64,000 bases of DNA from Bacteroidia bacterium (GCA_030427245.1 JAUHXA010000001.1:91899-155898), one strand, 5' to 3'; numbered from the stretch's first letter, positions 4,719 through 56,964 are shown. The notes: generated by a model from the letters alone, not told the origin. A program made the numbers and translations.

Positions 4719-7523
4719 CTATTCTTTAATTATTTTTACCTGATGAATTGCTTGTCCATTTTGAGAAAGCTGCAATAGGTACATTCCTTTTGCAAGTTGA
4801 CTCGCATCTACTTCTATAGAATTTGCTCCTACTTCTATAGAAACCTCTTTTTGCAGTAAACGCTGCCCCATGATGTTAAAAATTTGCAATTCTGCGTTTA
4901 TTTCTTGCGAAGCATTGAAGAAAACGACAGTTTGACCTCTAACAGGATTTGGTGCAACATTGAAGTCATTGATACCTGCCAAAATCAAGTTTTCAATTGA
5001 AGAAGAAAAATCAGCCGCTATGTTTCCGTTTGCCCGTACAAAATTTGCATCTTCAAAACTTGGTATATCTGCACTGATAGTCACTGCAAAAGGCTCACTT
5101 GGAATATTGAGGATTTCGATGTGAACAGTATAAGTTCCGTAAGGAATTCCTTCAAAAGAATAGTTCCCTTGTGCATCTGTATGGGTAAAACCAACAGGAT
5201 TACCGTCTGCATCCAACAAGATAACCATGATTCCGCCCACTTCACTCAAGCTTTTACCTGCTCCATCCGAAATATTGCCGCCAATAAATCCTGGTCCACC
5301 AGGGTTTTCACCTGCTACCATATTGATATCAATGCCAAATACATTGCCATCTACTGCAACAGTTGTTGCATCCATCCAAGAAAGCACTCCATCATAGTAA
5401 GTTGGGAGATAATCATTGTAGAGAGGTGACCATACATTCATTGCAGCTTTCACCAAATATTCGCTGCCTTCTTCCAATCCGTCAAAACAGTAGAAAGAAA
5501 AGCTGCTGCTGTCGCCTTGTCCCCATCCAAAACCAATCGCAATCGTAGAATCTACGGCAGTCAAGGTATTGTTTTCGGCATCGTATTCGATTAGGTAAAC
5601 AGTCGCATCATAAGTAGTAGGCGCATTGAAGTTGTTGGCAACATTGATGCTTCCACACAAACTCAATCCTGTAGGCTGCCATCCGCCATCTCCTGCAATG
5701 AGGCTCACACACATATCGCTCACACATCCATCAGCTGTTACGACTGTCAAGCAAGCGGTATAAGTGCCATCTTCATAGGTGTGCATTGGGTTTTGTTCGG
5801 TAGAACTCGCACCATCACCAAAATCCCATTGCCAAGCTACCACATCTTGTGATGACCAATCTTCAAACTGGAAAATATTGCCGGGTGTTGTTGCTGTTCC
5901 ATCTGTTGAATACGTACTAAATTCGGCATAACAAACATCCCATTGCCCTTCTTCTACCAAAATATCTTGACAAATCGTGTCTTCACAACCTACATTGTTG
6001 GTTATCGTCAAACAAACCGTATAAGTACCTACCTCCTCATAAGTGTGGACTTCCTGTGGGCCAAAACCAGTTGTACCATCTCCAAAATCCCAAGTCCATG
6101 AAGTTGGATTGCCCAACGAACAGTCCAAGAAATTAACCGTCAATCCTCCAAATCCTGGGTCGATAATCACTACGGTATCCAATACTGCACTGTCGCCAGG
6201 CAATGCACTATGCCAAAAATGTGCTTCGCAATCGGCTGGATTCCAAATATTAATAACAGAACATTGCTGACTACTGCAACCATCATTTGTAGTAATTGTC
6301 AAACAAACAACATATTCTCCATAGTCTGCATAAGCATGTGACGGATTTTGTTCAGTTGAAAAAGTTCCATCTCCAAAATCCCATTCCCAAGAGGTCGCAT
6401 TGTCAGTAGAAAAATCTTCAAAATTATAACTCAATGTGCTACTGTCTTGTGAAAGAAAATAGTAAAATTCTGCAAAACAAAACCCTTCACCACTCACATA
6501 AATATCTTCGCAATAGGTCGAAGTACAGCCTGTATCGTTGGTTATCGTCAAACAAACCGTGTACACTCCTGTTTCGTTGTAGGTATGAATGATTTGAGGG
6601 CCTGTCAAGAGGGTATTGTCCCCCATATCCCATTCCCATAAACCTGCTCCTGTCGAACCATCCCAAAAGGTGACTGTTAAACCACCTCCACCAATAGGAG
6701 TACCGTTTCCAGTCGAATCATTGGCAGTATGGTAGAAATAAGCAGTGCATAGAGAATCAGTACCTCCTCCACCATTGGCGAGCTCATCGTATAAGTTTTG
6801 GCAGATTCCATCCCAATCGCTATTGCAACAGTAAGAATCAGCCGCAATGACCTCCAAGAAGATAGAATCATCTGCTGCATAAGGTGCGGCTCCATTTAGA
6901 ATCGTCAGACAGTCCACTGACGCATTTGCAGTAGAAATCACTTGACAGTTGGTGTCTTCGCAACCTATTGCATTGATTACAGTCAAGCAGACTGTATAAT
7001 TCCCTTCCTCAGCATATACATGGATGGGGTTTTGTTCGGTTGAAGTATTGCCATCTCCAAAATCCCATGTCCATGCAATCCCGTCAGAAGTATTGCCATT
7101 GTTAGAGAAATCCGTAAAAGCCGTAGTTGTGCCATTGGTCGTTGCAAAGAAACCCGCCCAAATATAGCACCCAGTAGAATCTGTTCCGCCACCTCCATCA
7201 TCATTAACAATGATGTCTTGGCAAAATACTGCCTGACATCCCCCATTCGTGGTAATGTATAAACAAATAGAATAAACACCTGCTCCAAAAATAGTTTCGA
7301 CCATCACATTTTGACCTGTCATGCTGAAACCTTGTCCGATAGACCAAAACCATTCTGTTACAAAATCAGAAGGGTCTGCCAAAGTCGCATTTCCGCTTAG
7401 GGTAATCGCATACTCCTCAACTGTGGCTGAAAAATCAACACTACAATCGCCCGAACCTACTGGTTGTGCCTGTAAAATCATTACAGAAAAGAGCATCAAA
7501 AAAATACTTAGAAGTTTTTGCAT
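4719..7523 (-). CDS. Secreted PKD-repeat protein with T9SS C-terminal sorting domain
   Basis: 934 aa with a signal peptide (MQKLLSIFLMLFSVMILQAQP). Six PKD-like repeats carry the signature W.WDFGDG..S.EQNP.H.Y...G.Y.V.L. A CarboxypepD_reg/SdrD-B-like segment follows (DADGNPVGFTHTDAQGNYSFEGIPYGTYTVHIE). The C-terminal ~80 aa match the typical Por/T9SS tail (FNVAPNPVRG...MYLLQLSQNGQAIHQVKIIKE). Confidence 0.85.
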   Translation of the reverse strand: MQKLLSIFLMLFSVMILQAQPVGSGDCSVDFSATVEEYAITLSGNATLADPSDFVTEWFWSIGQGFSMTGQNVMVETIFGAGVYSICLYITTNGGCQAVFCQDIIVNDDGGGGTDSTGCYIWAGFFATTNGTTTAFTDFSNNGNTSDGIAWTWDFGDGNTSTEQNPIHVYAEEGNYTVCLTVINAIGCEDTNCQVISTANASVDCLTILNGAAPYAADDSIFLEVIAADSYCCNSDWDGICQNLYDELANGGGGTDSLCTAYFYHTANDSTGNGTPIGGGGLTVTFWDGSTGAGLWEWDMGDNTLLTGPQIIHTYNETGVYTVCLTITNDTGCTSTYCEDIYVSGEGFCFAEFYYFLSQDSSTLSYNFEDFSTDNATSWEWDFGDGTFSTEQNPSHAYADYGEYVVCLTITTNDGCSSQQCSVINIWNPADCEAHFWHSALPGDSAVLDTVVIIDPGFGGLTVNFLDCSLGNPTSWTWDFGDGTTGFGPQEVHTYEEVGTYTVCLTITNNVGCEDTICQDILVEEGQWDVCYAEFSTYSTDGTATTPGNIFQFEDWSSQDVVAWQWDFGDGASSTEQNPMHTYEDGTYTACLTVVTADGCVSDMCVSLIAGDGGWQPTGLSLCGSINVANNFNAPTTYDATVYLIEYDAENNTLTAVDSTIAIGFGWGQGDSSSFSFYCFDGLEEGSEYLVKAAMNVWSPLYNDYLPTYYDGVLSWMDATTVAVDGNVFGIDINMVAGENPGGPGFIGGNISDGAGKSLSEVGGIMVILLDADGNPVGFTHTDAQGNYSFEGIPYGTYTVHIEILNIPSEPFAVTISADIPSFEDANFVRANGNIAADFSSSIENLILAGINDFNVAPNPVRGQTVVFFNASQEINAELQIFNIMGQRLLQKEVSIEVGANSIEVDASQLAKGMYLLQLSQNGQAIHQVKIIKE

Positions 7524-11751: not shown

Positions 11752-12837
11752 TTAAGTATTATGAAACGTTTTTTGTGGAAGATTGCTCAATTGAAACAAA
11801 TTAAATTCTTGTAAGCGTTTTGGAATCTTTATATTGTATCGTTGAGCAGCATTCATTACAATGGTATTCAGCAAAGCTTCATAAACTTCCATCTCGTCCA
11901 GATGTGAAAAACATACACTTGCCTGTTTGAGTTGAACGCTCTCAGGGAATACAAGCGCAGGAAAGCCATTTACATCAAAAATTCGCAACTGCCCCTTACT
12001 GTCTAATCTTCCATCCACCCTTGTTACACCCCTTATATTCAGCACTTTACAGATTTCAGGTACTATATTTCGGACCTGACTCAATATATGTTCATCCCTT
12101 ACTATTGTCATTTGCTTCAAATCACCCCAACTCATAAATCGCTCTTTTTGCCCCATAATAGAAGTTTCGCCTGGTTTTCCTTCTACGGCGTAATAAGTGG
12201 TCAACAATTGAGTTTGCCCTTGAGGCGCAGCATAATATCCAACTGTGATGTCTGTACTCGGAAGAAAATCCTCAATAATCACATCGCTTCGAAAAGTTGT
12301 TATCATCTGATGTATTTGTTGGGTAGCCTCCTTTTCATTATCTACCAATGAATCATCGGTCATGCCTTTGCTGCCCGATTCGGCAGTCAACTTTACCACA
12401 GCAGGATAAGACAAAGCACTATTTCGTAGAATGTCAGCAATTTCCTTCAATTGTGTGGTTTTTACAACCGCAAACTCGGGAATAGGAATCCCATGAGATT
12501 TTAGTATTTTTTGGCAAACATCTTTTCGCAATACATTTTGCAAGGTTGTTTTATCCGAGCCTATGACCGGTAAGCCATAACTTTCAATGATATCTACCAG
12601 CCATGCCTTTTCTTTACTTCCTTTTTCTACATCTACATAGTAAGCATTTGGTAAAATCAGTTCCTGCGGATTGCTTTGCGACAGTATTTTATTCAGCATT
12701 GCCAAACTATCGACTTCTACATGACTGACTTCGATACCATTGCGCTCTAAAGCTGCCATCATTACTTCTAAATCTTCATAATGGCTTATCCACCCATTTT
12801 TCCAGTGCCCTTTGCTGTTTATAATTTTAACCTTCAT
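11752..12837 (-). CDS. ATP-grasp ligase, D-Ala-D-Ala-ligase-like architecture
   Basis: 361 aa. The N-terminal domain is followed by ...YGLPVIGSDKTTLQNVLRKDVCQKILKSHGIPIPEF... and a C-terminal ...VDGRLDSKGQLRIFDVNGFPAL. It overlaps the upstream GNAT gene by 11 nt, suggesting translational coupling. Confidence 0.75.
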   Translation of the reverse strand: MKVKIINSKGHWKNGWISHYEDLEVMMAALERNGIEVSHVEVDSLAMLNKILSQSNPQELILPNAYYVDVEKGSKEKAWLVDIIESYGLPVIGSDKTTLQNVLRKDVCQKILKSHGIPIPEFAVVKTTQLKEIADILRNSALSYPAVVKLTAESGSKGMTDDSLVDNEKEATQQIHQMITTFRSDVIIEDFLPSTDITVGYYAAPQGQTQLLTTYYAVEGKPGETSIMGQKERFMSWGDLKQMTIVRDEHILSQVRNIVPEICKVLNIRGVTRVDGRLDSKGQLRIFDVNGFPALVFPESVQLKQASVCFSHLDEMEVYEALLNTIVMNAAQRYNIKIPKRLQEFNLFQLSNLPQKTFHNT

Positions 12838-14828: not shown

Positions 14829-14860
14829 TAACGTGACCTTCGAAATCGGAAATGTGACCT
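14829..14860 (+). repeat. Bipartite GTGAC direct-repeat motif (copy)
   Basis: TAACGTGACCTTcgaaatcggAAATGTGACCT. The GTGAC cores are 21 bp apart (14833 and 14854). Confidence 0.8.
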
Positions 14861-14898: not shown

Positions 14899-15560
14899 CT
14901 ATTTCACAATCATTGCTCGCTCAATCAATAAGATTGTTTTACTTTCCAAATTGAATAAATTGTGTTCTTGTACAATTGAAGGGATTGGCATATTGTATCG
15001 CCACAAACTATCTCCCATAAGAGTGTGAATCAGACATTTGAATAAATGCTTTTGGTCATAAGTAGGGAAGTGAGCAAAACATTGTTTTATCAATGCAGAA
15101 ATCGGATAATTCAGTCCAGGAAATCCATTGATGTCAAAGAAATTCATGATTCCGTTTCTATCTAATCTCCCATCAATGCGTATAGTGGTTTGGACACCGA
15201 ATACATCTACAATCATTGGCAAATAAGTTTCCAACTGACTCAATACAGTTGGGTCTTCTTCAGTACCAATGGAAATTCCAACCCTCTGAAATTATCTTTT
15301 TAGCTACTTTTCCTACATTTTGTCGTTGAAGTATAATGTTTGGAGGTACGGGAATACCTGCTTCTTTTAATTTCAATTGACAGGTATCTTTTTCTAAAAG
15401 TTGTAGTAGAGTTTTCAGTCCAGAACCGATTAAGGGTAATTGGTATTTTTCTATTGCTTCAATCTCTTTGTAATGTACTCAACCTATGCCCAAAGGATTT
15501 AGGTGGAACACCGCCCTCTTGTTTCATCCTTTCAATGGTTTTTTCGAAGAGTGTACGGTG
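14899..15560 (-). pseudogene. Decayed paralog of the 11752-12837 ATP-grasp gene
   Basis: Three frames carry homologous pieces. Examples are ...EIEAIEKYQLPLIGSGLKTLLQLLEKDTCQLKLKEAGIPVPP... and ...TTIRIDGRLDRNGIMNFFDINGFPGL...RYNMPIPSIVQEHNLFNLES. There are at least two frameshifts or stops. About 100 codons of the central ATP-binding region are missing. The 5' end abuts a GTGAC motif copy. Confidence 0.65.
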
Positions 15561-15570
15561 AATTCTTGTT

Positions 15571-15604
15571 AATAGTATCACATTGAAGCTAAAAAATGTG
15601 ACCT
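15571..15604 (+). repeat. Bipartite GTGAC motif (copy with degenerate first half)
   Basis: AATAGTATCACATTgaagctaaaAAATGTGACCT. The first core is ATCAC and the second is GTGAC, 21 bp apart. Confidence 0.6.
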
Positions 15605-15726: not shown

Positions 15727-15760
15727 AAAGCGTGACTTAGGCTAGAAAAAATGTGCCCTA
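15727..15760 (+). repeat. Bipartite GTGAC motif (copy)
   Basis: AAAGCGTGACTTAggctagaaaAAATGTGCCCT, with cores 21 bp apart. The surrounding ~100 bp is homologous, in inverted orientation, to 50120-50210. Confidence 0.7.
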
Positions 15761-15804: not shown

Positions 15805-18738
15805 TCAATCTCCCAACAACAAAAACCCACCCCAATACCTCGGTGGCAAATCTTCCTTCAATAATTGCAGCTTGGCATAACGCAAAGCTTGAGCATAATT
15901 GTCTTCTTGATTCAGCAAATAATCGTAAAAATGGTGGGCAAAAATGGCAGTTTTTTGGTCGTAAATTTTGAAGAGGGTAAAAACGATGTTGGGAACACCT
16001 GCATACAACAAGCCCCGATTGAGCGATAAAATCCCTTCTCCTGCTGCAATTTTTCCTACTCCACTTTCGCAACAACTCAAAAAAACCAAGTCGCTTTTGA
16101 GCTTCAACTGATACAGTTCGTGGGCATACAAAATGGCACTTTGAGTAGATAAAGCATTTTGTTGTCGAGGTTCGAGAGGATTTGCATTGGAGGAGGTATC
16201 AGTCGAAATTGGAGTCTGTTTTTTGTCGGGCGAAAACAAAATCCCCAATACATTTTTCTTTTGATTGGAGACTCCATGGGCTGCAATGTGTAAATATTTG
16301 GGCTGAGTCTGCTGTGCGTTTTTCTTGAATTCCTCCAAATTGGCTTTGGCACGCAGAAAAACCTGTGATTGCCAACCCTTTTGCTGAAAGTTGGCTTCGA
16401 TGTCTTTCACTTCTTTTTCGGAATAGAGCAAGGCTTTGTAGTGCGTTCCACGAATAGAGACATCTCTTGTAGCTTCTGCGGGTAGGGCTTCGGACACATT
16501 GGAGGAGAATTGTTGGGTGTCGTAAACGGGAGCGAAACCCAAAAATTGAGGTAGTAAGTTTTTGGAGTCTTTGTTTCGCTGTTGTTGATATTGACGCAAG
16601 GTGGCGGAATAGTGGTAGGTGATGCTGTATTTTTTGAGCAAATAGGGCATTTTTGAATAAGCCGTTTTGAAGGAGGTCGCTTGGGTAAGCAACAATTCAA
16701 AGGGCAATTCCAATAGGTGACTGTCGGGTAAAATCAATAGAGATTCGATTTGATTTCCTTGAAATTTTTCTTCAATCGGTGCTATCAGTAATTGATACAA
16801 TTGATGGGCTTTTTGGACATACGCTTTGCGGTTCATGCCCAAAATCGCTTCGTCTATAAAGCTGTCTAACAATTGGTTAAAGCCTTCAGTGAGATTTGTT
16901 CTTTCTAAGCAAATCGTGTGAATGTCTATATACAGGATATACAAATACTCCTCTCCCAAAATATAACTGATAGCAGCTTGGTAAGTTTTCAGTTGAGATT
17001 GAAGGTCTTTTACTTGAAGGGAAGGCATTTGGTGCTTCAATTCCAAATATTCGGGATGTTCTTTTTCGATTTGTTGGAAAAGTTGGTGGTATTCAACTTG
17101 GAGGTTGGCAAACTGTTCTCCCTTATCATCAAATGTTTTTGAATCGGTTTCTAAGTCTGCTTTTTGCAGTAGGGTTTGATGGTAATTGATTCTTGATTGC
17201 AACTGTTGTAGCTCTTGCAGTTTTTTGGTCGGAATAGCAGATAATTGAAGGGCTTCTGCCTTTTGAATAGTAGATAATAGGCTGTGAACCTTGTTTTTTT
17301 CGGAAAGAATAAAGATTTCTTCCTGTAATTTTACCTCTAAGAATTGGCTGTATTGTTCATATAGTATATTGATTGCCAAGTGATAAAATTGAGTGATGTA
17401 TTGGTGAAAGATTAATTGGTCAGCCTCTTGAAAAATAGAGGATTGTTTTTCTGCAATTAGGGCATAAGTGTTTGGAAACAGTTGAACAGCCTCTTGCAGG
17501 TATTCCACATTTTGTTCGGCTCTAAAACACTCGAAAAGAATTTGAAGGCGACGCATCTCCAATTCTATAAGAAGCTCTAAATTAAAGACTTGATGGGTTT
17601 TTTGTGCTTTTTCGCAATGCTTCAAGGCTTTTTTAATGGAAAAGAGAGCTTCACGCGGCTTATTTTGCAGACTCAACGATTTTGCATCATACCCATAATA
17701 ACGGGCTTTAAACATGTTTTGATTAATATCCAGGTTTTCAATTGCTTCTTTCCCTTTCTGAAAACACTCTTCAACCATTTCCCATTTTTGAGCGTCTAAG
17801 CACAGTACCAACCAGTTATCGTAAGCAAATACCAACCATTCATAGTTTTCAGGATTGTGTTGAAGGTGATTGTCAAGGGCTTGTTGAAAAAAATCAGATG
17901 CTTGCTCCCAATTTCCCTGTTTTACATAGAGTTCTCCAATATAAAACAGTATCATGGAAATCTCGTCATAAGCCAATTCTTGCTGTTGTAGTATCGCTAA
18001 AGTTTCTTGATATTGTTGAAATGCGGCATCGTCCTCTCCCAATTTAGCCTGTATTTCAGCCAAACTCACTTTAACATGTATGGTTATAGGATTGTCTATA
18101 CCAAGATGCACTTCGAAGAGTCGAAGTGCTTTTACTAAATAAGACTTCGAGAGGTTGTAATACTCCAATAGTCTATAGGTATGGGCAATGTTAAAATAGG
18201 TGTAAGCAGTGCTTGTAAGCGATTTTTTATTGGTCTTTCGGCTTTGTATTTTCAAAGCTTTGTAGTAGTAGGGCAAAGAATTTTGGTAACGATAGGTGTG
18301 ATTGTAATAGTTGCCAATGCCTGTATAAACCATTGCTATTCCTTCTTCATCGTTTAGATTTTGATAAACAGCCAACGCCAATTTGCTTTGCTTCAATGAG
18401 TTTTCATATTGTTTTTGGTCGAAAGAAATAGTTGCCTGCAAATCATACAAATTCCCCAATAAGGTTTGCTGCTTTTTTATTTTGTTTTCATAAACTCTTA
18501 GAGCTTCTTCGACTAGTTTTTGTGCTTCTGCCGATGCTTGCTGATTGCGTTTCCAATTCGCCATTCTATACAAACATTGGATATAAGATTCCCATTTTTC
18601 ATATTCTAAATAAATTTTGGATGCACTGTCAAATAAATCGTAGCTTTTGCTAAAGGGACTTTCTTCAAGGAGTTGCTGTCCTTCTGCAAATAACCTATCC
18701 GCTTGTTCGATTGCCGACTCGTTTAATTCTTTGTCCAT
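15805..18738 (-). CDS. TPR-repeat + CHAT domain (caspase-fold protease) protein, paralog 1
   Basis: 977 aa. The N-terminal ~450 aa are TPR-like repeats. The C-terminal CHAT domain has a His in YLHIAAHGVSN and a Cys in LVFLSCCESGVGK. A TAnnTTTG-like box (TATATTTG, rc of 18773-18780) lies ~35 nt upstream of the ATG. Confidence 0.9.
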   Translation of the reverse strand: MDKELNESAIEQADRLFAEGQQLLEESPFSKSYDLFDSASKIYLEYEKWESYIQCLYRMANWKRNQQASAEAQKLVEEALRVYENKIKKQQTLLGNLYDLQATISFDQKQYENSLKQSKLALAVYQNLNDEEGIAMVYTGIGNYYNHTYRYQNSLPYYYKALKIQSRKTNKKSLTSTAYTYFNIAHTYRLLEYYNLSKSYLVKALRLFEVHLGIDNPITIHVKVSLAEIQAKLGEDDAAFQQYQETLAILQQQELAYDEISMILFYIGELYVKQGNWEQASDFFQQALDNHLQHNPENYEWLVFAYDNWLVLCLDAQKWEMVEECFQKGKEAIENLDINQNMFKARYYGYDAKSLSLQNKPREALFSIKKALKHCEKAQKTHQVFNLELLIELEMRRLQILFECFRAEQNVEYLQEAVQLFPNTYALIAEKQSSIFQEADQLIFHQYITQFYHLAINILYEQYSQFLEVKLQEEIFILSEKNKVHSLLSTIQKAEALQLSAIPTKKLQELQQLQSRINYHQTLLQKADLETDSKTFDDKGEQFANLQVEYHQLFQQIEKEHPEYLELKHQMPSLQVKDLQSQLKTYQAAISYILGEEYLYILYIDIHTICLERTNLTEGFNQLLDSFIDEAILGMNRKAYVQKAHQLYQLLIAPIEEKFQGNQIESLLILPDSHLLELPFELLLTQATSFKTAYSKMPYLLKKYSITYHYSATLRQYQQQRNKDSKNLLPQFLGFAPVYDTQQFSSNVSEALPAEATRDVSIRGTHYKALLYSEKEVKDIEANFQQKGWQSQVFLRAKANLEEFKKNAQQTQPKYLHIAAHGVSNQKKNVLGILFSPDKKQTPISTDTSSNANPLEPRQQNALSTQSAILYAHELYQLKLKSDLVFLSCCESGVGKIAAGEGILSLNRGLLYAGVPNIVFTLFKIYDQKTAIFAHHFYDYLLNQEDNYAQALRYAKLQLLKEDLPPRYWGGFLLLGD

Positions 18739-18855: not shown

Positions 18856-19347
18856 TTATTCAGCAATAAATACCATTGTCCTCTCGCTCAATTTTGCTTC
18901 AATATGTGGAGATAATCGATATTTTTCAAGCACTTCTTCCTCCAGAAATGCCGCCCCTTGAATACGCTTCAAACACTTCTCACTTCCACACATACAATCA
19001 AAGGCTTCGGTCATTGCCCATTCGGTTGAAGGATAGAAAAATGCCATTTCTTCGCCTTTTTGAATCGGGCGTAAGGTTCGCAAAGTCATGGTTTCTAAAT
19101 CAAAAAACACGTTGGGATTACAACTGTGATTGATGTATTGCAGATATTCGGGGTCGAGGTGAATGTGCTTATTCTTGCCCATTTGCACTGTATAGCGAGT
19201 GGCTTGAGGTAATATTTTTTTGTAGCTAAATGCCATCAAAACTGTATTGGCTTCCATATCTTGAGTGACAAACATGGATTTATAATTTTCTTCGGTGAAG
19301 TGTCTTACTTCAAAAAAAGGAGTGACTTGTTGATTTTTAGAATTCAT
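18856..19347 (-). CDS. SET-domain protein (putative protein-lysine methyltransferase)
   Basis: 163 aa. It has the NHSCNPN signature (YINHSCNPNVFFD), a GEEMAFFY motif, and a Cys-rich post-SET-like CMCGSEKC. Confidence 0.85.
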   Translation of the reverse strand: MNSKNQQVTPFFEVRHFTEENYKSMFVTQDMEANTVLMAFSYKKILPQATRYTVQMGKNKHIHLDPEYLQYINHSCNPNVFFDLETMTLRTLRPIQKGEEMAFFYPSTEWAMTEAFDCMCGSEKCLKRIQGAAFLEEEVLEKYRLSPHIEAKLSERTMVFIAE

Positions 19348-36954: not shown

Positions 36955-36964
36955 TTAACTAAGA

Positions 36965-37132
36965 TTAATTGCTTCTAAAAATTACAATAAAAAAAGCGGG
37001 TATAAATGGCGTAAGCAAAATACTTAGAAAGAACACCCCCCAGAAACCAATAGCGGTTTTTCTACCACCTATTGCCACCAATATGCAAAAGAAAAAATAG
37101 GCACCAATAAAAAAGGTCAATTTAGTAGGCAT
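36965..37132 (-). CDS. Small two-TM membrane ORF (55 aa)
   Basis: MPTKLTFFIGAYFFFCILVAIGGRKTAIGFWGVFFLSILLTPFIPAFFIVIFRSN. Its ATG lies 4 nt after the stop of the upstream paralog, so it is tightly packed in the operon. It is below the ORF-track size cut-off. Confidence 0.45.
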   Translation of the reverse strand: MPTKLTFFIGAYFFFCILVAIGGRKTAIGFWGVFFLSILLTPFIPAFFIVIFRSN

Positions 37133-37135
37133 AAA

Positions 37136-38002: not shown

Positions 38003-38243
38003 ATTTTAAAATTGAATTACAAAAAATAGACTGGTCTCTATTCAACTTAATAACGTCAGGTAATTTGTGGACTGAAGATGCAATAGGTTTTTAAAATCTG
38101 GTACATCTTCAATCCACACAATCACCTCTTAAGCTACTCTCAGGTAGCTTATAGATTAGAACAAATACCAATTGTTTTAATAAGTTAGTAAATCAGAATA
38201 ATTAACTAATCTTCAATCTATTAGGGTTCTTTTCGATAAATTA

Positions 38244-39844: not shown

Positions 39845-39850
39845 TAATAT

Positions 39851-48299: not shown

Positions 48300-48917
48300 A
48301 TGACCCAACAAAACATCATTGAAGGCTTCATCAAAAATGATAAAGAAGTCATTTTATATTTTTACAAAAAACTATTTGCCCAAATAAAGAAGATGATAAT
48401 GGAAAATGGAGGAGATGAAGACGATGTGCGAAACACAATTTGGAAGGCTTTTCACGCATTTAAGATACAATGTCAAAAAAAAGAAAATCATCCCAATAAT
48501 CCCGAAGCCTACATCGTACAAATAGCTCGATTTTTGTGGTATAAAGAATTGAAGCAAAAGAAACGAAAGCAGATGATTCACCAATATTATGATAATCTTC
48601 AAGAAGATATAGAGTTGGTAGAAAGCATTGAAACCACTTTAGTCGAGACCGATAGACAAGAAATTGCTCTCCAATTTCAACAGCAGTTGAACAATATATC
48701 CATCTACTGTCAGCAAATCATCCGATTGAGGTATCAACACGAATTGCCTCATAGCGATATTGCCGCTCGGTACGGAATTTCTGAAACTGCATCTCGAAAA
48801 CGACTGTCTCGCTGCCTAAAAGAATTGGCACGTTTTATTGACTCAAAGGGACTTACCAATCAAATAGCGCATCATTTTCCTTCTGTTATTAAGTATGTTA
48901 AAAAACATGTCCATTAA
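48300..48917 (+). CDS. Sigma-70 family (ECF-like) RNA polymerase sigma factor
   Basis: 205 aa. Region-2-like: ...DDVRNTIWKAFHAF...YIVQIARFLWYKE. Region-4 HTH: CQQIIRLRYQHELPHSDIAARYGISETASRKRLSRCLKEL. Confidence 0.8.
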   Translation: MTQQNIIEGFIKNDKEVILYFYKKLFAQIKKMIMENGGDEDDVRNTIWKAFHAFKIQCQKKENHPNNPEAYIVQIARFLWYKELKQKKRKQMIHQYYDNLQEDIELVESIETTLVETDRQEIALQFQQQLNNISIYCQQIIRLRYQHELPHSDIAARYGISETASRKRLSRCLKELARFIDSKGLTNQIAHHFPSVIKYVKKHVH

Positions 48918-48978: not shown

Positions 48979-49557
48979 ATGGACTTCAACGAATTAGCTG
49001 ACAAATTTTTAAATGACCAATTGAATGAGCAAGAACGTACACAATTTGACGAGCTACTAAAAAATCCTGACTTTATGGAATCAACCTATCTCAGCGTACT
49101 TTTAAAACAATCATTTAAGAAAAACGACGACCTCCAATTTTTAAGAACGCTTAAGGAAGTAGAACAAACCTTCTATTATCAACAATCCTATACTTTGGAA
49201 GAATTATTGGCTTGTTTTTCTCCTGTTCAAGAATATGAAGATAACCTGTCGACCGTTAGCAGGGCAAGCGATGTAGAAATTTTGCATCCCAAAAACCACA
49301 TCAATTGTGTTGATAACCTGTATTTTGAATGGAGCAAACCCAATCACATTCCTCTATTGCTTATCATCGAAAACAATGAATACGATGTATTGATTCGCAA
49401 AGAAATCCCTATTCAAACGCTCTCATTCAGCATCAATTTGGACTTCAAAAAAGGCTTCAAGCCTGGTCGCTATTATTGGAAATTGACCTCCAAAAGGCAT
49501 GAGATTTCTGCAATAGGGGCGTTTTTTATTGCAAAAGACCTACTCAAAAGAACTTGA
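48979..49557 (+). CDS. Hypothetical soluble protein, anti-sigma-like N-terminus
   Basis: 192 aa. It sits 61 nt downstream of the sigma gene. The N-terminus ELADKFLNDQLNEQERTQFDELLKNPDF resembles the N-terminal helices of short anti-sigma factors. No TM segment. A GGGGCAA...TTGCCCC hairpin follows at ~49585-49611. Confidence 0.55.
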   Translation: MDFNELADKFLNDQLNEQERTQFDELLKNPDFMESTYLSVLLKQSFKKNDDLQFLRTLKEVEQTFYYQQSYTLEELLACFSPVQEYEDNLSTVSRASDVEILHPKNHINCVDNLYFEWSKPNHIPLLLIIENNEYDVLIRKEIPIQTLSFSINLDFKKGFKPGRYYWKLTSKRHEISAIGAFFIAKDLLKRT

Positions 49558-49629
49558 TTGTATTTTTTACAACTCAATACCAACGGGGGCAAAACCCAAA
49601 ACTTGCCCCCTTCAATTAAAAGTACAACA

Positions 49630-50141
49630 AGTTACTCCCAAATACTTACACATTGCAGCACATGGAGTTTCCAATCGCCGCAAAAACGTATTGGGAATTT
49701 TGGTTTCACCAGAGAAAGAGGCACGAAGTGCTTATACCTTCAATGTCATTCCTTCAAAAAAAAACTCCTTTGCAGGCTCGACAACAAACAACTTCCTCGC
49801 CCCAAAGTACCATTTTGTATGCCCACGAACTGTATCAATTGAAGCTCAAAAGCGATCTGGTCTTTTTGAGTTGCTGCGAAAGTGGCGTAGGCAAAATTGC
49901 AGCAAGGGAAGGAATTTTATCCCTTAACAGAGGTCTGCTGTATGTAGGTATTCCCAACATTGTTTTTACCCTCTTCAAAATTTACGACCCAAAAACCGCC
50001 ATTTTTGCCCATCATTTCTACGATTATCTGCTGAATCAAGAAGACAACTATACCGAAGCCTTGCGTTATGCCAAGTTACAATTATTGAAGGAAGATTTGC
50101 CGCCGAGATATTGGGGAACTGAGTATTGCCATATTTTGTAA
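49630..50141 (+). pseudogene. Orphan C-terminal CHAT cassette (frameshifted)
   Basis: Nucleotide-level homolog of 53458-53966, covering TPKYLHIAAHG through LPPRYWG. The A9 tract at ~49756-49764 (A8 in the intact paralog) shifts the frame. The last codons are replaced (…YWGTEYCHIL*). The N-terminal ~800 codons are missing. The three overlapping track ORFs (49529-, 49558-, 49653-) are pieces of this one remnant. Confidence 0.8.
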
Positions 50142-50162: not shown

Positions 50163-50200
50163 AGAGGTCACATTTTTTCTCGCCTTAGTCACGCTTAATA
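50163..50200 (-). repeat. Bipartite GTGAC motif (reverse orientation)
   Basis: The rc reads TATTAAGCGTGACTAAggcgagaaaAAATGTGACCTCTT. The cores (50167-50171 and 50188-50192) are 21 bp apart. Confidence 0.75.
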
Positions 50201-50331: not shown

Positions 50332-50664
50332 ATGACAATTACAGTAAACCAAAATCAAAACGTACAAGTATTACACCTTAATGGAAAGCTTACAATTGGC
50401 TATGACATGGATTTAAGAAATAAGGTGATGGAACTGGTAGATGCAGGAAATAAAAATTTTGTTATTGACCTAAAACAGGTTCCTCGCATGGATTCTTCTG
50501 GCATGGGAATGCTTATAAATATCCATGTAATAATGAATAGTGAGGGGGGAAGACTCATACTTTGTGAAGCAAACTCCCAAATAATACAACTTTTGGAACT
50601 AGCTCAATTGGATAGTATATTGGAAATAGTTTCAACAGAACAGGAAGCAGTGAGTTCCTTCTAA
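50332..50664 (+). CDS. STAS-domain protein (anti-sigma-factor antagonist, SpoIIAA/RsbV-like)
   Basis: 110 aa. ...VLHLNGKLTIGYDMDLRNKVMELVDAGNKNFVIDLKQVPRMDSSGMGMLINI..., carrying the conserved DSSG phosphorylation-site context. Confidence 0.8.
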   Translation: MTITVNQNQNVQVLHLNGKLTIGYDMDLRNKVMELVDAGNKNFVIDLKQVPRMDSSGMGMLINIHVIMNSEGGRLILCEANSQIIQLLELAQLDSILEIVSTEQEAVSSF

Positions 50665-51041: not shown

Positions 51042-53966
51042 ATGAACAACTCTATTGATTTGACCACTGTACAGGCAGATGCCTTATTTGAACAAGGAGA
51101 AAATCTTTTTCAAAAAGATAGTAGTAGCGATTACTATGTTTTTTTTGAAAAAGCATCTGAGATATACTGGAAAGTTGAAAATTGGGAAAAATACCTATGG
51201 TGTCAATGCAAAATGACGGATTGGCTGAATGTAAAAAATCATGTCCAAAAGGCAAAAAAAATCACAGAGGAGGGATTGGAGCTATGTAATCAAAAAATAA
51301 CTGTACCTCACGAATTGAAAGCTGAATTTCATTATAGGTTGTTTAAGTGCAATTTTCTTCAACGCCATTATGAACAAGCCCACCTCCATGCAGCCCAAAT
51401 GCTTGAAATAGCGCAAGCCTTGAATCATAATAGACTCACCGCAAAGGCATATCTATCAATGGCTAATGTTAACATGCACACTGAAAAATATGCACATAGT
51501 TTATCTCTTTTATTCAAAGCACTGCCTTATACGAAAGAATCGGCTGACAAATCAGAGAAAATAGATTTATGGAAATCAATAGGTCATGCTTACTTTCATT
51601 TGAAGCAATACCAACTTTCCAAAATTTACTTTTTGAGGACGGTCTATTTATTCAAACAGCACTTTGGAAGCGATTCTCTTTTTCTTGCCAATCCCATGAT
51701 AATGCTGGGAAAGATTGATATGCGAGTAGGTGACTATACGGAAGCATTGAAGCATTACGAAAAAGCTTTGAAAATCAAAGAAAAACATGCTATCGAAGAT
51801 GTAGAACTGTCTTATCTATTTTCTTTGTTGGGAGAGATTTATTTTCTTTTAGAAAAATGGGAGAATGCAGATAACTATTTTGAAAAAGCCATCAGAACAC
51901 AAAAAAACATCAATGAGAAGGATTTTAGATGGTTTGCTGCCGCCTATTATCAATGGGCAAACCTACATTTACAACAAAATCGCCTAAAACAAGGAAGACA
52001 GTTCTTAGAAAAAGCCAAGGCAGTTTTACTCCCTACTAATGCTGCGTTTTTAATGGCTCATACTTATCTATTGGAAGTAGATTTTGCTTGTGCAGCGCAT
52101 GAATTTAACTACGCATTGAAGGTGGTAACACAAGCAAACAAATATGTTGAAGATGTTGGGGTCAATAAAAAAGCGGATAGCCACTTATTGAAGTTTTCAT
52201 TGTATGAAAAACAACTAAATGTTTATTGGAACCTTTATCAAAATAGTTCTTCAAAAACCTTCTTGGAAAAAGGACATCAACTATTGCCTAAAATCCAGCA
52301 ACACATTGAGAGTGTACGTTTATCTTTTTTTAATGAGGCAGATAAATTGACATTCAATCAAGCTGCGACCAACATTTACCATCTTTCGATTAATCTCTTG
52401 TATGTGCTTTATTCACTGCAACCGAGTAAAAAGCTTTTAGAAGAAATTTTTTCTGTATCAGAAAAAAATAAAGTACACAGCCTATTGGCTTCTATTCAAA
52501 GCTTTGAAGCACTGCAATTATCCAAAATTCCTAAACAACACATAGAGAAGCTACAAATGCTTCCATCACAGATAAATAATTGTCAAGTATTCTTAACACA
52601 GCAAGGGAAAAGACTCCTCCCAGAAGAAAAATTTGATGAAAAATCAAAGGAGTTAGCTCGGCTCCAAATCCAATACCATCAGCTTATTCTCCAAATAGAA
52701 CAAGAAAATCCAGCATATTTTGCATTGAAACATCAGATGCCTTCTATTCACTTGAGCGATTTCCAAGTTCAACTAGCCCATCACCAAATTGCGATTAGTT
52801 ATGTACTTGAAGCGGAATTTTTGTATCTATTATACATAGACAATCAGAATATTCACCTAAAGAGAATTTCTCTTCCTCCCCATTTCCCTCAATTATTGGA
52901 TACCTTTATTGATGAGGCCATTTTGGGCATGAACCGCAAAGCTTATGTCAAACAAGCCCACCAATTGTACCAATTGCTCATCGCTCCAATTGAAGGAAAA
53001 CTAAATCAAAACAAAATTCAATCGTTGCTGATTCTTCCAGACAGTCACTTATTGGAACTGCCCTTTGGATTATTGTTGACTGAAGCAAGTTCTTTCAAAA
53101 CGGCTTATTCATCTCTCCCCTATTTACTCAAAAAATACAACATTACCTACCATTATTCCGCTACTTTGCGGCAATATCAACAGCAGCGAAACCAAGGCTC
53201 TAAAAACTTAACCCCTCAATTTTTGGGCTTTGCACCTGTTTACGACAATCAACACTTTCCCTCTGAAGTATCTGAAGCCCTACCTGCATTGGCAACGAGA
53301 GATATTTCCATTCGGGGAAGTCACTACAAGGCATTGCTTTATTCCGAAAAAGAGGTGAAAGACATTGAAGATACTTTTCGAGAAAAGGGCTACAATTCAC
53401 AGGTTTTTCTACGTTCAAAAGCCAATTTGACACGATTCAAAGAAAAAGCACAAAGATTTACTCCCAAATACTTACACATTGCAGCACATGGAGTTTCCAA
53501 TCGCCGCAAAAATGTGTTGGGGATTTTGTTTTCACCAGAGAAAGAGGCACTAAGTGCTTCTACCTTCAATGTCATTCCTTCAAAAAAAACTCCTTTACAG
53601 GCTCGCCAACAAACAGCTTCCTCGTCCCAAAGTGCCATTTTGTATGCCCACGAACTGTATCAATTGAAGCTCAAAAGTGATTTGGTGTTTTTGAGTTGTT
53701 GTGAAAGTGGTGTAGGCAGAATTGCAGAAGGGGAAGGCATTTTGTCGCTCAACAGAGGCCTCTTGTATGCAGGTGTTCCCAACATCGTTTTTACCCTCTT
53801 CAAGATTTACGACCAAACCACCGCCATTCTTGCCCATCATTTCTACGATTATCTACTGAATCAAGAAGACAATTATGCCCAAGCCTTGCGTTATGCCAAG
53901 CTGCAATTATTGAAGGAAGATTTGCCGCCGAGGTATTGGGGTGGTTTTTTGTTATTAGGAGATTGA
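51042..53966 (+). CDS. TPR-repeat + CHAT domain protein, paralog 2
   Basis: 974 aa with the same architecture as paralog 1. Catalytic His is in YLHIAAHGVSN and Cys in LVFLSCCESGVGR. Confidence 0.9.
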   Translation: MNNSIDLTTVQADALFEQGENLFQKDSSSDYYVFFEKASEIYWKVENWEKYLWCQCKMTDWLNVKNHVQKAKKITEEGLELCNQKITVPHELKAEFHYRLFKCNFLQRHYEQAHLHAAQMLEIAQALNHNRLTAKAYLSMANVNMHTEKYAHSLSLLFKALPYTKESADKSEKIDLWKSIGHAYFHLKQYQLSKIYFLRTVYLFKQHFGSDSLFLANPMIMLGKIDMRVGDYTEALKHYEKALKIKEKHAIEDVELSYLFSLLGEIYFLLEKWENADNYFEKAIRTQKNINEKDFRWFAAAYYQWANLHLQQNRLKQGRQFLEKAKAVLLPTNAAFLMAHTYLLEVDFACAAHEFNYALKVVTQANKYVEDVGVNKKADSHLLKFSLYEKQLNVYWNLYQNSSSKTFLEKGHQLLPKIQQHIESVRLSFFNEADKLTFNQAATNIYHLSINLLYVLYSLQPSKKLLEEIFSVSEKNKVHSLLASIQSFEALQLSKIPKQHIEKLQMLPSQINNCQVFLTQQGKRLLPEEKFDEKSKELARLQIQYHQLILQIEQENPAYFALKHQMPSIHLSDFQVQLAHHQIAISYVLEAEFLYLLYIDNQNIHLKRISLPPHFPQLLDTFIDEAILGMNRKAYVKQAHQLYQLLIAPIEGKLNQNKIQSLLILPDSHLLELPFGLLLTEASSFKTAYSSLPYLLKKYNITYHYSATLRQYQQQRNQGSKNLTPQFLGFAPVYDNQHFPSEVSEALPALATRDISIRGSHYKALLYSEKEVKDIEDTFREKGYNSQVFLRSKANLTRFKEKAQRFTPKYLHIAAHGVSNRRKNVLGILFSPEKEALSASTFNVIPSKKTPLQARQQTASSSQSAILYAHELYQLKLKSDLVFLSCCESGVGRIAEGEGILSLNRGLLYAGVPNIVFTLFKIYDQTTAILAHHFYDYLLNQEDNYAQALRYAKLQLLKEDLPPRYWGGFLLLGD

Positions 53967-54048: not shown

Positions 54049-56964
54049 ATGAAAGGGGTTAATTTGAATAAAGATATAGCAAAAGCAGATGAATTATTTG
54101 AAGAAGGGGAATGTCTATTTCAAGCAAACAATGCCAATGATTACTACGATTTTTTTGAAAAGGCATCTATCACCTATCAATTTTTTGAAAATTGGGAGAA
54201 GTACCTATGGTGTCAGTATAGAATAACTATTTGGCTGTGTGTGAGACATCAAATTCAAAAAGCGAAGGATATTGCAGAAAATGAATTGGAGAGATGTTTA
54301 CAAAAAATAGTTGGAGAGCATGAGTTGAAAGCAGAATTTCACTACAGATTGTTTTACTGCAATTTTTATCAAGCAAATTACGAATCTGCTACCTATCATG
54401 CAAATGAATGTCTAAAAATAGCACAGGCTCTAAATCATTCGACACTCATTATAAAAGCTTACAATGCAATTGCGAGCATAAATTTACATCTTGAAAAATA
54501 CACAGAGGGTTTATCATTTTTATTCAAGGCGCTGTCTTATTCAAAGTTTTTGGCTCAAAATTTAGAAACAATTCACATCTATCAAACGATGGGTCATGCG
54601 TATTTTCATTTAAGACAATTTCACCTTTCTCGTGTTTATTTTTTGAGAACGATTGATTTGTATAAAAAACTATTTGGAAATGAGTATCCCCCTCTCACCA
54701 ATTGTATGCTGATGATGGGCATGATAGACACAGAACAAGAAAGTTTCTCAGAGGCATTAGAATACTTTAGCAAACTTATAGACATTAAGGAAAAGTTACA
54801 AATTGAAGATAGAGAGCTTACAAGTACATTGTTTTATTTGGCAAAAATCAATGTTTATTTAGGAAATTGGGAGAAGGCAGGAGAATATTTTGAAAAATCC
54901 ATTAGCGTTCAGGAACGTATTCAAGAAAATAGTTATCGGTGGTTTGCAAATACTTATTATACATGGGCTAACATACATATAGAGAATGGTCATTTTGAAG
55001 TTGGCAAGTTTTATTTGGAAAAGGCAATTACAACACTTCCCTCAGAAACCACCTTGCCTCTTATACATGCTTACTTATTGAAAGTCGACATTGCGTTGAA
55101 AGAAAACAAATATACTGATGCGCTTAATTATATTGGAATGGTTCGGGATTGTTTGAGAAATATTATTGCAAACCAATCGGGGGAGTGGCGATTTCTTCAA
55201 TTTTCATTTTATAAAAGGCAGCTATTTATATACTGGAAACTTTATTTGGAAAACCATTCAATAACCTACTTACAAAAAGGAAATGCGCTTTTGTCTAAGG
55301 CTCTTCAACTCATTGATGAAACACGCATGAGTTTGTTTTCTAATTTAGATAAGTTGGAGTTCAATCAAACTGCAATAAGTATTTATCATACTGCGATTAA
55401 CCTAACTTATGCGCTTTTCTCAATCAATCGTGAGCATAAACTATTGGAACAAATATTCATTCTATCTGAAAAAAGCAAAGTTCATAGTCTTTTAGCTTCG
55501 ATTCAAGATTTTGAAGCACTTCAACTGACCAATATCCCCAAAAAACAGACGACAAAATTGCTAAAACTTCAATCACAAATAAAAGATTATCAAAAATATT
55601 TGGAAGTAAATGAAGCAGATATAAGTAAAGAAAATTTTGATAAAAATGCGGAAGAACTTGCTAACCTTCAAGTTCGATACCATCAACTTATACAACAAAT
55701 AGAACAAGAAAATTCCGAATATTTTGCGTTGAAACATCAGATGCCTTCTATTCACTTGAGCGATTTCCAAGTTCAACTAGCCCATCACCAAACTGCGATT
55801 AGTTATGTACTTGAAGCGGAATTTTTGTATATACTATACATGGACAATCAAAACCTCCATCTAACGAGTATTTCTCTTCCTGCTCATTTTCCTCAATTAT
55901 TGGATACTTTTATTGACGAAGCAATTTTGGGCATGAATCGCAAAGTTTTTGTAGAACAAGCACACCAATTGTATCAATTGCTTATCCTTCCCATTGAAGG
56001 AAAATTAAAACAAAACAAAACTCAATCTCTGCTGATTCTTCCAGATAGTCACCTATTGGAACTTTCCTTTGGCTTGCTATTGACTGAAGCGACTCCCTTC
56101 AAAACAGCGTATTCCAATATGCCGTATTTGTTCAAAGAATACAGCATTACCTACCATTATTCCGCTACTTTGCGGCAATATCAACAACAGCGAAACAAAG
56201 GCTCCAAGAACTTGCCCCCTCAATTTTTGGGTTTCGCTCCCGTTTACGATACCCAACAATTTCCCTCCAATGTGTCCGAAGCCCTACCTGCATTGGCAAC
56301 AAGGGATGTTTCCATTCGGGGTACTCACTACAAGGCATTGCTTTATTCTGAAAAAGAGGTGAAAGACATTGAAGATACTTTTCGAAAAAAAGGCTGGAAT
56401 TCACAGGTTTTTCTGCGTTCAAAAGCCAATTTGACACAATTTAAAGAAAAAGCACAGCAATTTACTCCTAAATACTTACACATCGCAGCACATGGAGTTT
56501 CCAATCGCCGCAAAAATGTATTGGGGATTTTGTTTTCGCCCGACAAAAAACAGACTCCAATTTCGACTGATACCTCCTCCAATGCAAATCCTCTCGAACC
56601 TCGACAACAAAATGCTTTATCTACTCAAAGTGCCATTTTGTATGCCCACGAACTGTATCAACTAAAGCTCAAAAGCGACTTGGTTTTTTTGAGTTGTTGC
56701 GAAAGTGGGGTAGGTAAAATTGCAGCAGGAGAAGGGATTTTATCGCTCAATCGGGGCTTGTTGTATGCAGGTGTTCCCAACATCGTTTTTACCCTCTTCA
56801 AGATTTATGACCAAAAAACAGCCATTTTTGCCCACCATTTTTACGATTATTTGCTGAATCAAGAAGACAATTATGCTCAAGCTTTGCGCTATGCCAAGCT
56901 GCAATTATTGAAGGAAGATTTGCCGCCGAGGTATTGGGGTGGGTTTTTGTTGTTGGGGAATTGA
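54049..56964 (+). CDS. TPR-repeat + CHAT domain protein, paralog 3
   Basis: 971 aa, 82 nt downstream of paralog 2. The C-terminal 150 aa are identical to paralog 1 except the last residue. Confidence 0.9.
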   Translation: MKGVNLNKDIAKADELFEEGECLFQANNANDYYDFFEKASITYQFFENWEKYLWCQYRITIWLCVRHQIQKAKDIAENELERCLQKIVGEHELKAEFHYRLFYCNFYQANYESATYHANECLKIAQALNHSTLIIKAYNAIASINLHLEKYTEGLSFLFKALSYSKFLAQNLETIHIYQTMGHAYFHLRQFHLSRVYFLRTIDLYKKLFGNEYPPLTNCMLMMGMIDTEQESFSEALEYFSKLIDIKEKLQIEDRELTSTLFYLAKINVYLGNWEKAGEYFEKSISVQERIQENSYRWFANTYYTWANIHIENGHFEVGKFYLEKAITTLPSETTLPLIHAYLLKVDIALKENKYTDALNYIGMVRDCLRNIIANQSGEWRFLQFSFYKRQLFIYWKLYLENHSITYLQKGNALLSKALQLIDETRMSLFSNLDKLEFNQTAISIYHTAINLTYALFSINREHKLLEQIFILSEKSKVHSLLASIQDFEALQLTNIPKKQTTKLLKLQSQIKDYQKYLEVNEADISKENFDKNAEELANLQVRYHQLIQQIEQENSEYFALKHQMPSIHLSDFQVQLAHHQTAISYVLEAEFLYILYMDNQNLHLTSISLPAHFPQLLDTFIDEAILGMNRKVFVEQAHQLYQLLILPIEGKLKQNKTQSLLILPDSHLLELSFGLLLTEATPFKTAYSNMPYLFKEYSITYHYSATLRQYQQQRNKGSKNLPPQFLGFAPVYDTQQFPSNVSEALPALATRDVSIRGTHYKALLYSEKEVKDIEDTFRKKGWNSQVFLRSKANLTQFKEKAQQFTPKYLHIAAHGVSNRRKNVLGILFSPDKKQTPISTDTSSNANPLEPRQQNALSTQSAILYAHELYQLKLKSDLVFLSCCESGVGKIAAGEGILSLNRGLLYAGVPNIVFTLFKIYDQKTAIFAHHFYDYLLNQEDNYAQALRYAKLQLLKEDLPPRYWGGFLLLGN

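Follow-up and report, generated by a model that had tools for sequence, protein, structure and literature searches.

In a 64,000-nucleotide stretch of DNA from a Bacteroidia (Chitinophagales) bacterium (GCA_030427245.1, JAUHXA010000001.1:91899-155898; hereafter the window), three full-length paralogs, p1, p2 and p3, encode proteins with an N-terminal TPR half and a C-terminal CHAT protease half, and the two halves appear to have had different histories. Intragenomic gene conversion has very probably overwritten the 3' portions of these genes repeatedly, from about residue 540 to the stop codon, and left the 5' TPR halves as old, distinct lineages. An earlier reading of the window (the sequence-only reading) had located the paralogs and had proposed gene conversion and concerted evolution of the protease half; the open reading frames lie exactly where it had put them, and its proposal is borne out by a drop in synonymous divergence, by recombination breakpoints, and by trees in which the CHAT halves group by genome and the TPR halves by type. 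The first paralog, p1 (15805..18738, minus strand; open reading frame call with Pfam CHAT and TPR matches), encodes a TPR-CHAT protease of 977 amino acids with an A-type TPR half. The TPR-CHAT proteins encoded by p2 (51042..53966, plus strand; 974 amino acids; catalytic His816 and Cys887) and p3 (54049..56964, plus strand; 971 amino acids) carry a B-type TPR half, and p3 stands in tandem with p2, 82 nt after it. A fourth CHAT copy survives as a decayed 3' remnant (~49618..50141, plus strand; approximately the last 165 codons), located by blastn, tblastn and alignment, with at least one frameshift, open reading frame fragments in two frames and a 19-nt deletion near its end. Its nearest relative is p2 (90.6% nucleotide identity), and the string of informative sites is p2-like over the first ~200 nt and mixed after that.

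Protein identity was followed along the alignment of p1, p2 and p3 in 50-column windows. Taken whole, the TPR halves share 23-47% identity and the CHAT halves 79-99%. Over columns 1-450, p1 is 14-40% identical to p2 or p3, and p2 is 26-64% identical to p3, in keeping with the earlier description of scattered identity in the N-terminal ~450 residues (14-64% per window across pairs). Over columns 551-600, p2 and p3 reach 90% and p1 stays at 56-58% to either of them; this middle segment had been said to group p2 with p3 against p1, and it does, the two peptides quoted in support, HQMPSIHLSDFQVQLAHHQ and HQMPSLQVKDLQSQLKTYQ, being found there. The accompanying statement that the paralogs become highly similar from about residue 560 holds for the p2-p3 pair but not for p1, whose identity to the other two is just 56-78% as far as about residue 700. 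At the C-terminal end, from column 830 onwards, p1 equals p3 over 149 residues, only the last residue differing (D/N), and p2 is 79-94% identical to the two, just as had been read for the last 150 residues. The third paralog is thus a mosaic that resembles p2 through residue 821 and p1 over the remainder, which starts at residue 822. In nucleotides, the catalytic half is 68-94% identical among the three genes and the TPR half of p1 is 35-55% identical to those of p2 and p3.

A conserved half beside a variable one could also be the product of purifying selection alone, with CHAT constrained, TPR drifting and no recombination. CHAT is indeed the most conserved part between genomes too (61-79% protein identity, against 23-53% for TPR), and dN/dS, estimated by the Nei-Gojobori method, is low throughout (0.02-0.24). 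The synonymous sites decide against this explanation. In residues 1-450 the proportion of synonymous differences (pS) is 0.71-0.80 for all three pairs, which is saturation. In residues 831-977 (~147 codons) it falls to 0.11 between p1 and p3 (dS 0.13, against a dS of 0.75-0.81 to p2), and in residues 561-830 it is 0.29-0.37 between p2 and p3 (dS 0.35-0.40), against ~0.7 upstream. The third gene stands at 0.45-0.73 in each of these low-divergence tracts, and orthologs compared between genomes over the same CHAT regions at 0.58-0.76, so that values of 0.11-0.37 inside the tracts are set against 0.58-0.84 in the remainder of the genes and among orthologs. Because synonymous divergence collapses in the shared tracts, purifying selection alone is insufficient: constraint on the protein cannot lower pS to such values while orthologs keep theirs, nor can it produce by-genome clustering of nucleotide sequences at 100% bootstrap or a significant switch of nearest relative. 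We therefore consider this explanation extremely improbable.

The switch itself was examined with several recombination tests. Counts of informative sites per 150 nt favour the p2+p3 pairing up to column ~830 and p1+p3 from there on. A 3SEQ-type walk describes p3 as a mosaic of p2 (5') and p1 (3'), with a permutation p<5e-5 over the whole gene and the same p<5e-5 when columns 551-981 are taken alone. In a GENECONV-type test, the longest runs of matching polymorphic sites were 44 for p1-p3 and 23 for p2-p3 (each p=2e-4), and the run for p1-p2 was not significant. The change of nearest relative along the gene, which the sequence-only reading had taken as a mark of recombination, is accordingly significant in both kinds of test; the opposite pattern that it had named, uniform divergence with one phylogeny, was not seen, since pS varies along the genes and the trees conflict.

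The most recent exchange is the one between p1 and p3. By the run test, this tract spans 15808..16257 (minus strand) in p1, that is, residues 828-977, and 56512..56961 (plus strand) in p3, and ends at the stop codon. Its 5' edge is sharp: five differences in the two preceding codons are followed by none in 155 nt, and then by 12 differences in ~300 nt, so that the first 155 nt may mark a separate and still more recent event. The tract takes in the catalytic Cys890 and a variable disordered loop (residues 845-865). This loop between the catalytic His and Cys (window ~16144-16206) is the most variable segment of the family and has two "alleles" in this genome, one common to p1 and p3 (DKKQTPISTDTSSNANPLEP...) and another that is nearly the same in p2 and the remnant (EKEALSASTFNVIPSKKTPLQA...); the zero-difference start of the tract copied exactly this loop. 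The p2-p3 homogenised segment covers 52647..53507 (plus strand) in p2 and its counterpart 55651..56511 (plus strand) in p3, corresponding to p1-numbered residues ~541-830, with 83-96% nucleotide identity in 40-codon windows.

Other Chitinophagales provide an independent view of the same process. The comparison used metagenome-assembled genomes (MAGs), in which the closest relatives lie: G2 (GCA_041392475.1), with two copies on one 3.6-Mb contig; G3 (SGMAG-61), with three copies on three contigs; and G4 (GCA_964353105.1) as outgroup. A genome scan for close relatives returned two close loci only, both in one MAG; a metagenome scan with the CHAT alignment returned no relatives, and a protein cluster collection held no strain variants of p1-p3, which were represented there by one source contig. 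In the TPR half, p1 is 40% identical to G2_A and to G3_P0002, against 23-26% to p2 and p3; the latter two group with G2_B and G3_B (42-50%), and their identity to each other (47%) lies in the range of that of each to G2_B (45-49%). In the CHAT half, the resemblance among p1, p2 and p3 already given compares with 61-79% to any foreign copy. Neighbour-joining trees with bootstraps, built from protein and from nucleotide sequences, express this conflict. The TPR tree unites p1, G2_A and G3_P0002 (98-100%) and, separately, p2 and p3 with G2_B and, in part, G3_B (100%); the CHAT tree unites p1, p2 and p3 (100%), the G3 copies (92-100%), and G2_A with G2_B (76-96%). The 5' TPR halves are ancient lineages, A-type in p1 and B-type in p2 and p3, with orthologs in other Chitinophagales. 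The point at which p1 switches from being closer to its orthologs to being closer to its paralogs lies at residues ~520-560, upstream of the Pfam CHAT boundary and within the last long helix. In G3, the A-type and B-type genes share 95% protein identity over residues 641-775 and 28% in TPR, and in G2 the two copies share 98% of nucleotides in the 40-codon windows covering residues 901-960. The 3'-biased homogenisation is independent in at least three genomes. A CHAT 3' remnant stands just before a STAS gene in both the window and G2, and the G2 remnant is 91-92% identical to the genes of its own genome and 78-79% to those of the window, which suggests that pseudogene copies join in the exchange or arose independently. 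GC content at third codon positions is 0.39-0.44 in the homogenised half of the window and G2 genes, higher than the 0.30-0.36 of the other half; as weak evidence, this would fit GC-biased conversion.

These comparisons also bear on domain shuffling, in which one CHAT half would have been recently duplicated and fused, as a one-off, to existing divergent TPR halves with no ongoing homogenisation. The transition at about residue 540 is fairly sharp, as such a fusion would have it, and the 3' flank of p1, which holds remnants of PhyH and Ddl genes, corresponds in synteny to the region following the B-type gene in G2, which suggests that an entire 3' end, flank included, was moved by at least one crossover. 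A single fusion is nevertheless disfavoured, because it predicts uniform divergence downstream of one junction. The CHAT halves instead contain at least three tracts that differ in age and partner (dS 0.13 for p1-p3, 0.35-0.40 for p2-p3, 0.75-0.9 for all three), three genomes show the by-genome pattern and differ in their tract boundaries, and the pseudogene remnants too resemble their own genome. We see this as quite improbable, if somewhat less so than selection alone.

Several points weigh against repeated conversion as we describe it. The species is represented by one genome, so that donor, direction, and conversion as opposed to double crossover are not separable. The genomes used for comparison are MAGs, and assembly is interrupted or misled by repeats of this sort. 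Over residues 641-830, by-genome clustering of the G2 pair is weak (22-44% bootstrap). In G3, the pair formed by the A-type gene and a third-type gene (P0002-P0003) has a pS of 0.58-0.64, close to the values found between genomes, and homogenisation in that genome rests on protein similarity and on the B-type copy. Finally, the four Logan contigs that were read all end ~100 nt after the gene of a 192-amino-acid protein (described below), where the remnant begins. Logan contigs from other samples (L006-L008 among them) carry this gene and the neighbouring sigma factor gene in identical form, and no second copy of the paralogs was found on the contigs with the identical 192-amino-acid gene.

The last of these points is what would be expected if a metagenome assembler had collapsed or cross-joined repeat copies: the source of the window is probably itself a MAG, and short-read assemblies of other samples break exactly at the remnant. 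The p1-p3 tract, however, is not collapsed, since it contains 12 differences and has distinct, well-supported flanks; the older tracts, 80-93% identical, are easily resolved by assemblers; and the pattern is present in three independent assemblies, one of them a 3.6-Mb contig. An artefact of assembly thus has next to no likelihood in our judgement.

Based on these results, the favoured mechanism is non-reciprocal gene conversion by intragenomic homologous recombination, extending from about residue 540, in the last long helix before CHAT, to the stop codon. An older event homogenised all three copies, another acted between p2 and p3 over residues ~541-830, and a recent one between p1 and p3 over the last 150 codons. 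Homologous recombination requires near-identical stretches. The TPR halves are too diverged to recombine, their 35-55% nucleotide identity (p1 against p2 and p3) being out of its reach. On this simpler, mechanistic account, conversion would sustain itself wherever nucleotide identity stays high under purifying selection on the catalytic domain, and its effect would be that every paralog of one genome carries the same protease module on differing TPR modules. It could also be that uniformity of the protease is itself selected, for example through a shared substrate.

From their sequences and from a structural model, p1, p2 and p3 are predicted to be soluble separase/craspase-type TPR-CHAT cysteine proteases, an identity well supported by Pfam, the catalytic dyad and the fold. 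CHAT (PF12770) is found at the C-terminus of all three with 163-180 bits against a cutoff of 24 (E 1e-47 to 1e-52), and Pfam TPR matches lie in the N-terminal part of each. The His821/Cys890 dyad of p1 is invariant in an alignment of 82 homologs, and the HIAAHG (His) and SCCESG (Cys) motifs are present in all three proteins. An AlphaFold2 model of p1 built on that 82-sequence alignment (pLDDT 89.9, pTM 0.87) predicts a TPR solenoid at residues 7-434 (gene start to about residue 434, 17437-18738, minus strand), four long helices at residues 438-569 (17032-17427, minus strand), a caspase-like alpha/beta CHAT domain at residues 587-977 (15808-16980, minus strand), and disordered loops at residues 747-765 and 845-865. 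The top folds retrieved from the PDB by Foldseek are Csx29 (8eey_B, E 6e-13), human separase and DdvA (8rw5, 8rot); E-values of the top matches run from 6e-13 to 1e-9, yet whole-chain TM-scores are just 0.3-0.58. PDB sequence searches with p1 and with the sigma factor gave chance or kinesin-light-chain TPR matches only. No transmembrane segment was detected in the three proteins (maximal Kyte-Doolittle mean over 19 residues, 1.2-1.4), and the Pfam scan found no NTPase family in them, the p1 model having helices alone between TPR and CHAT.

The sequence-only reading had gone further and supposed that the TPR module diversifies as in immune-receptor families. This would be an arms race in which diversifying selection acts on TPR halves that sense pathogens, and in which conversion is favoured for keeping a death effector common to all copies. 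A variable repeat sensor joined to a conserved effector does resemble the logic of NLR and Avs proteins; the best fold match is Csx29, and the solved TPR-CHAT relatives are defensive, Csx29 acting in Craspase (PMC10028731) and DdvA over a CBASS-CRISPR island (PMC11506125); the window also encodes a cyclase-AAA-TPR protein with PycC-like matches at 238-4293. On the other side, the TPR types are old and orthologous across genomes, and there is no measurable excess of replacements in the TPR half, where dN/dS is ~0.2, a value made unreliable and uninformative by the saturation of dS (pS 0.71-0.80). PADLOC gives no system match, the sole hit in p1-p3 being the generic model "TPR repeats containing protein" (E 1e-5 to 1e-6). 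The window contains no CRISPR-like tandem array and no Cas7-11, its only open reading frame above 1000 amino acids being the cyclase-AAA-TPR protein. The neighbouring genes are metabolic or regulatory, and such genes are also kept beside the B-type gene in G3. With ancient TPR types, no PADLOC system, no NTPase and no recognisable defence island, the immune-receptor part of the earlier reading is not supported, and we regard such an arms race as unlikely. Fungal and plant NLR genes form modular multigene families in which recombination shapes the modules differently (PMC1805685, PMC13449251). The key distinction is that NLR families reshuffle or positively select the repeat sensor, whereas here TPR is stable and the enzymatic half is homogenised; p1-p3, moreover, are without the NTPase domain.

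The genes around the paralogs hint at regulation of transcription. An ECF (extracytoplasmic function)-type sigma-70 family factor of 205 amino acids is encoded at 48300..48917 (plus strand; TIGR02937, 54.4 bits against a cutoff of 42.9; Sigma70_r4_2), and its ortholog, 79% identical, stands beside the TPR-CHAT genes in G2. Next to it, at 48979..49557 (plus strand), is the gene of a soluble 192-amino-acid protein, which adjoins the sigma gene in 5/5 loci. This protein is predicted to have N-terminal helices (low confidence, pLDDT 45-73) and a C-terminal DUF3244-like beta-sandwich; Foldseek matches the model with DUF3244/Ig-like sandwiches alone, and a profile search of 1.8 billion representatives gave at least 337 relatives, with DUF3244 as the one informative domain. 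We considered it as a Csx30 or an anti-sigma factor, and neither identity found support in a PDB sequence search, in the AlphaFold2 model with Foldseek, in Pfam and NCBIfam, or in the profile search. Between the remnant and p2, the gene at 50332..50664 (plus strand) encodes a STAS anti-sigma-factor antagonist of 110 amino acids (TIGR00377, 68.2 bits where the cutoff is 53.45), and its G2 ortholog lies between the CHAT remnant and CHAT-B. A SET-domain protein of 163 amino acids (18856..19347, minus strand) is encoded directly upstream of p1, and its G2 ortholog (74% identity) directly downstream of CHAT-A.

The order in the window is ECF sigma, 192-amino-acid protein, CHAT remnant, STAS, p2 and p3, with p1 and SET apart. 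In G2 there is a single cluster, with a 188-amino-acid protein and the sigma factor (divergent), CHAT-A, SET, CHAT remnant, STAS, CHAT-B, PhyH and Ddl. Fragments of PhyH and D-Ala-D-Ala ligase (Ddl) pseudogenes were found by tblastn downstream of p1 (14902..15581, minus strand; 38 of the 304 amino acids of PhyH, and amino acids 76-136 and 241-359 of Ddl). Since intact PhyH and Ddl genes follow the B-type CHAT gene in G2, the 3' flank of p1 is syntenic with a B-type locus, and this suggests that the region was once rearranged, with a breakpoint inside or close to a CHAT gene. No single rearrangement between the window and G2 accounts for where SET lies; those considered were an inversion between p1 and the remnant and a deletion of what separates A from B. 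The window also contains an intact, divergent Ddl paralog (38% identity) at 11752-12837.

The window has 8 copies of a promoter-like motif, CCAAAA-N-GG(T/G)CAC-N15-17-G(T/A)CA(C/T)G, where 0.03 would be expected; they lie at 14832-14859(-), 15731-15758(-), four times within 39882-40227(-), and at 48165-48192(-) and 50166-50193(+). Further copies are present in L005 (12973-13000, 13694-13721, 17668-17695) and L001 (3646-3673). All window copies are intergenic and each points at a downstream gene; these genes encode a 383-amino-acid dehydrogenase-like protein, the PhyH remnant, SPFH, an ATP-grasp operon and STAS. In G2 and G3, the motif follows CHAT stop codons directly and precedes SET, STAS and PhyH. 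The element at 15731..15758 (minus strand), just past the p1 stop codon, reads GGGCAC-N16-GTCACG with CCAAA before it, and is homologous to those after the remnant and after the CHAT genes of other genomes; the copy after the remnant (50166..50193, plus strand) is 138 nt upstream of the STAS gene. An Rfam scan found no known RNA in this conserved post-stop element. The local ECF sigma factor is a candidate for acting on this motif. Upstream of the SPFH/Band-7 gene (38990-39856, minus strand) there is a tandem repeat at 39848-40291 (106 nt x 4.2 copies, 90% matches) with one motif per unit, so that the promoter-like element has been quadruplicated there.

By analogy with known TPR-CHAT systems, a proteolytic sigma switch is the likeliest function we can offer, tentative as it is. 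In such a switch, it is possible, if doubtful, that the proteases feed differing inputs to one shared target within the set formed by the ECF sigma factor, the 192-amino-acid protein, STAS and SET. The more specific proposal that the paralogs could be alternative inputs of one CRISPR-independent switch is shakier still. Each TPR type would sense its own cue; conversion would keep the genome-specific protease uniform since all copies must cut the same co-encoded target, whose candidates would be the ECF sigma factor, its DUF3244-like partner, the STAS antagonist and the SET protein; and cleavage would free the sigma factor onto GGTCAC-N16-GWCACG promoters (the 8 in the window). If this were true, the locus would be a free-standing relative of the Craspase-Csx30-CASP-sigma and DdvA-DdvS circuits, and concerted evolution would be a readout of protease-substrate co-evolution. 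Two observations argue against a functional link to the sigma module. The association is one of neighbourhood: a TPR-CHAT gene is adjacent to the sigma/192-amino-acid pair in 3/5 loci and not beside it in 2/5, where a copy may have been missed because, on the upstream side of the sigma gene, the contigs go no farther than 2.2 kb (L009) and 1.6 kb (L010). In addition, neither the sequence nor the fold of the 192-amino-acid protein resembles Csx30 or known anti-sigma domains.

There are clear similarities to, and differences from, the two models. Csx29 cleaves Csx30, the inhibitor of an ECF-type sigma factor, CASP-sigma (PMC10028731). With Csx29 of the type III-E Craspase the window's proteins share the TPR and CHAT layout, the His-Cys dyad and the best fold match, and here too an ECF sigma factor is encoded beside the genes. 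Unlike in that system, the window holds neither Cas7-11/gRAMP nor a CRISPR array, p1-p3 give no Csx29 sequence match and are ~250-300 residues longer, and no Csx30-type substrate was found nearby, the 192-amino-acid neighbour being unlike Csx30. DdvA, a Myxococcus anti-sigma factor with a periplasmic TPR-CHAT part, shows functional coupling between a TPR-CHAT module and an ECF sigma factor (DdvA-DdvS), and controls a CBASS-CRISPR island (PMC11506125). It resembles our proteins in associating TPR-CHAT with an ECF sigma factor and is among their top fold matches. DdvA, however, spans the membrane as a single protein whose N-terminus bears a zinc-binding anti-sigma domain, whereas p1-p3 are without a transmembrane segment and have TPR helices from residue 7, and the sigma factor of the window and its candidate partner are separate soluble proteins. 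The locus therefore belongs to neither the Craspase nor the DdvA type, and a sigma switch is proposed by analogy to both.

Domain-restricted concerted evolution of bacterial paralogs is already well known; in Helicobacter pylori, the bab (babA/babB) and hom (homA/homB) families evolve in concert through gene conversion (PMC4552749, PMC2795765, PMC3444412). There, as here, paralogs of the same genome swap segments by intragenomic recombination. The window's proteins differ in being predicted cytoplasmic proteases and not surface antigens, so that there is no obvious rationale of antigenic variation, and the pattern was seen across genera and not across strains. In the bab genes, the 3' segments are reportedly the homogenised part, according to work by Pride and Blaser in 2002. 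In the literature, we found no description of gene conversion in TPR-CHAT genes and none of an association of CHAT with SET and STAS. The present genes offer a clean case, replicated in three genomes, in which recombination affects only one half of a multidomain family and the ortholog and paralog trees conflict. In practical terms, full-length similarity or single trees will mis-assign TPR-CHAT orthology, and short-read assemblies break at these genes. One protease module per cell, presumably with one specificity, on different TPR scaffolds constrains models of the widespread stand-alone TPR-CHAT proteins, and the linked ECF sigma, STAS and SET genes, together with the enriched promoter-like motif, provide a testable hypothesis for a role outside CRISPR systems.

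The remainder of the window is varied in content. Between the two TPR-CHAT sub-clusters lies a ~27-kb block with all genes on the minus strand (20834-48120). It encodes two ATP-grasp proteins, GCS2-CBS, MscS, NmrA, DUF3078 and SPFH proteins and three tandem DUF697 paralogs (36085-38939), together with an amine oxidase, a methyltransferase, a 2-hydroxyacid dehydrogenase, an HMGL-like protein, an arginase, an ABC ATPase, a P-type ATPase-like open reading frame and SMP-30. CBS, DUF3078, MscS and NmrA genes also adjoin the B-type CHAT gene in G3. Downstream of p3 and convergent with it, with 27 nt between the stop codons, is a gene for a 486-amino-acid ATPase_2/AAA protein (56992-58452, minus strand; PF01637, E 2e-13), for which there was no NCBIfam name. 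At the other end of the window, the gene at 238-4293 (plus strand) encodes 1351 amino acids, with nucleotide-cyclase domains at the N-terminus (PADLOC PycC-like, E 7e-14) and a long TPR region after them; its sequence suggests an ATPase-like middle part, and it may be a signalling or defence protein. Next to it, the gene at 4719-7523 (minus strand) encodes what appears from its translation to be a secreted protein of 934 amino acids, with many WDFGDG..S.EQNP.H.Y repeats (PKD-like) and a C-terminus that resembles a type IX secretion sorting domain.

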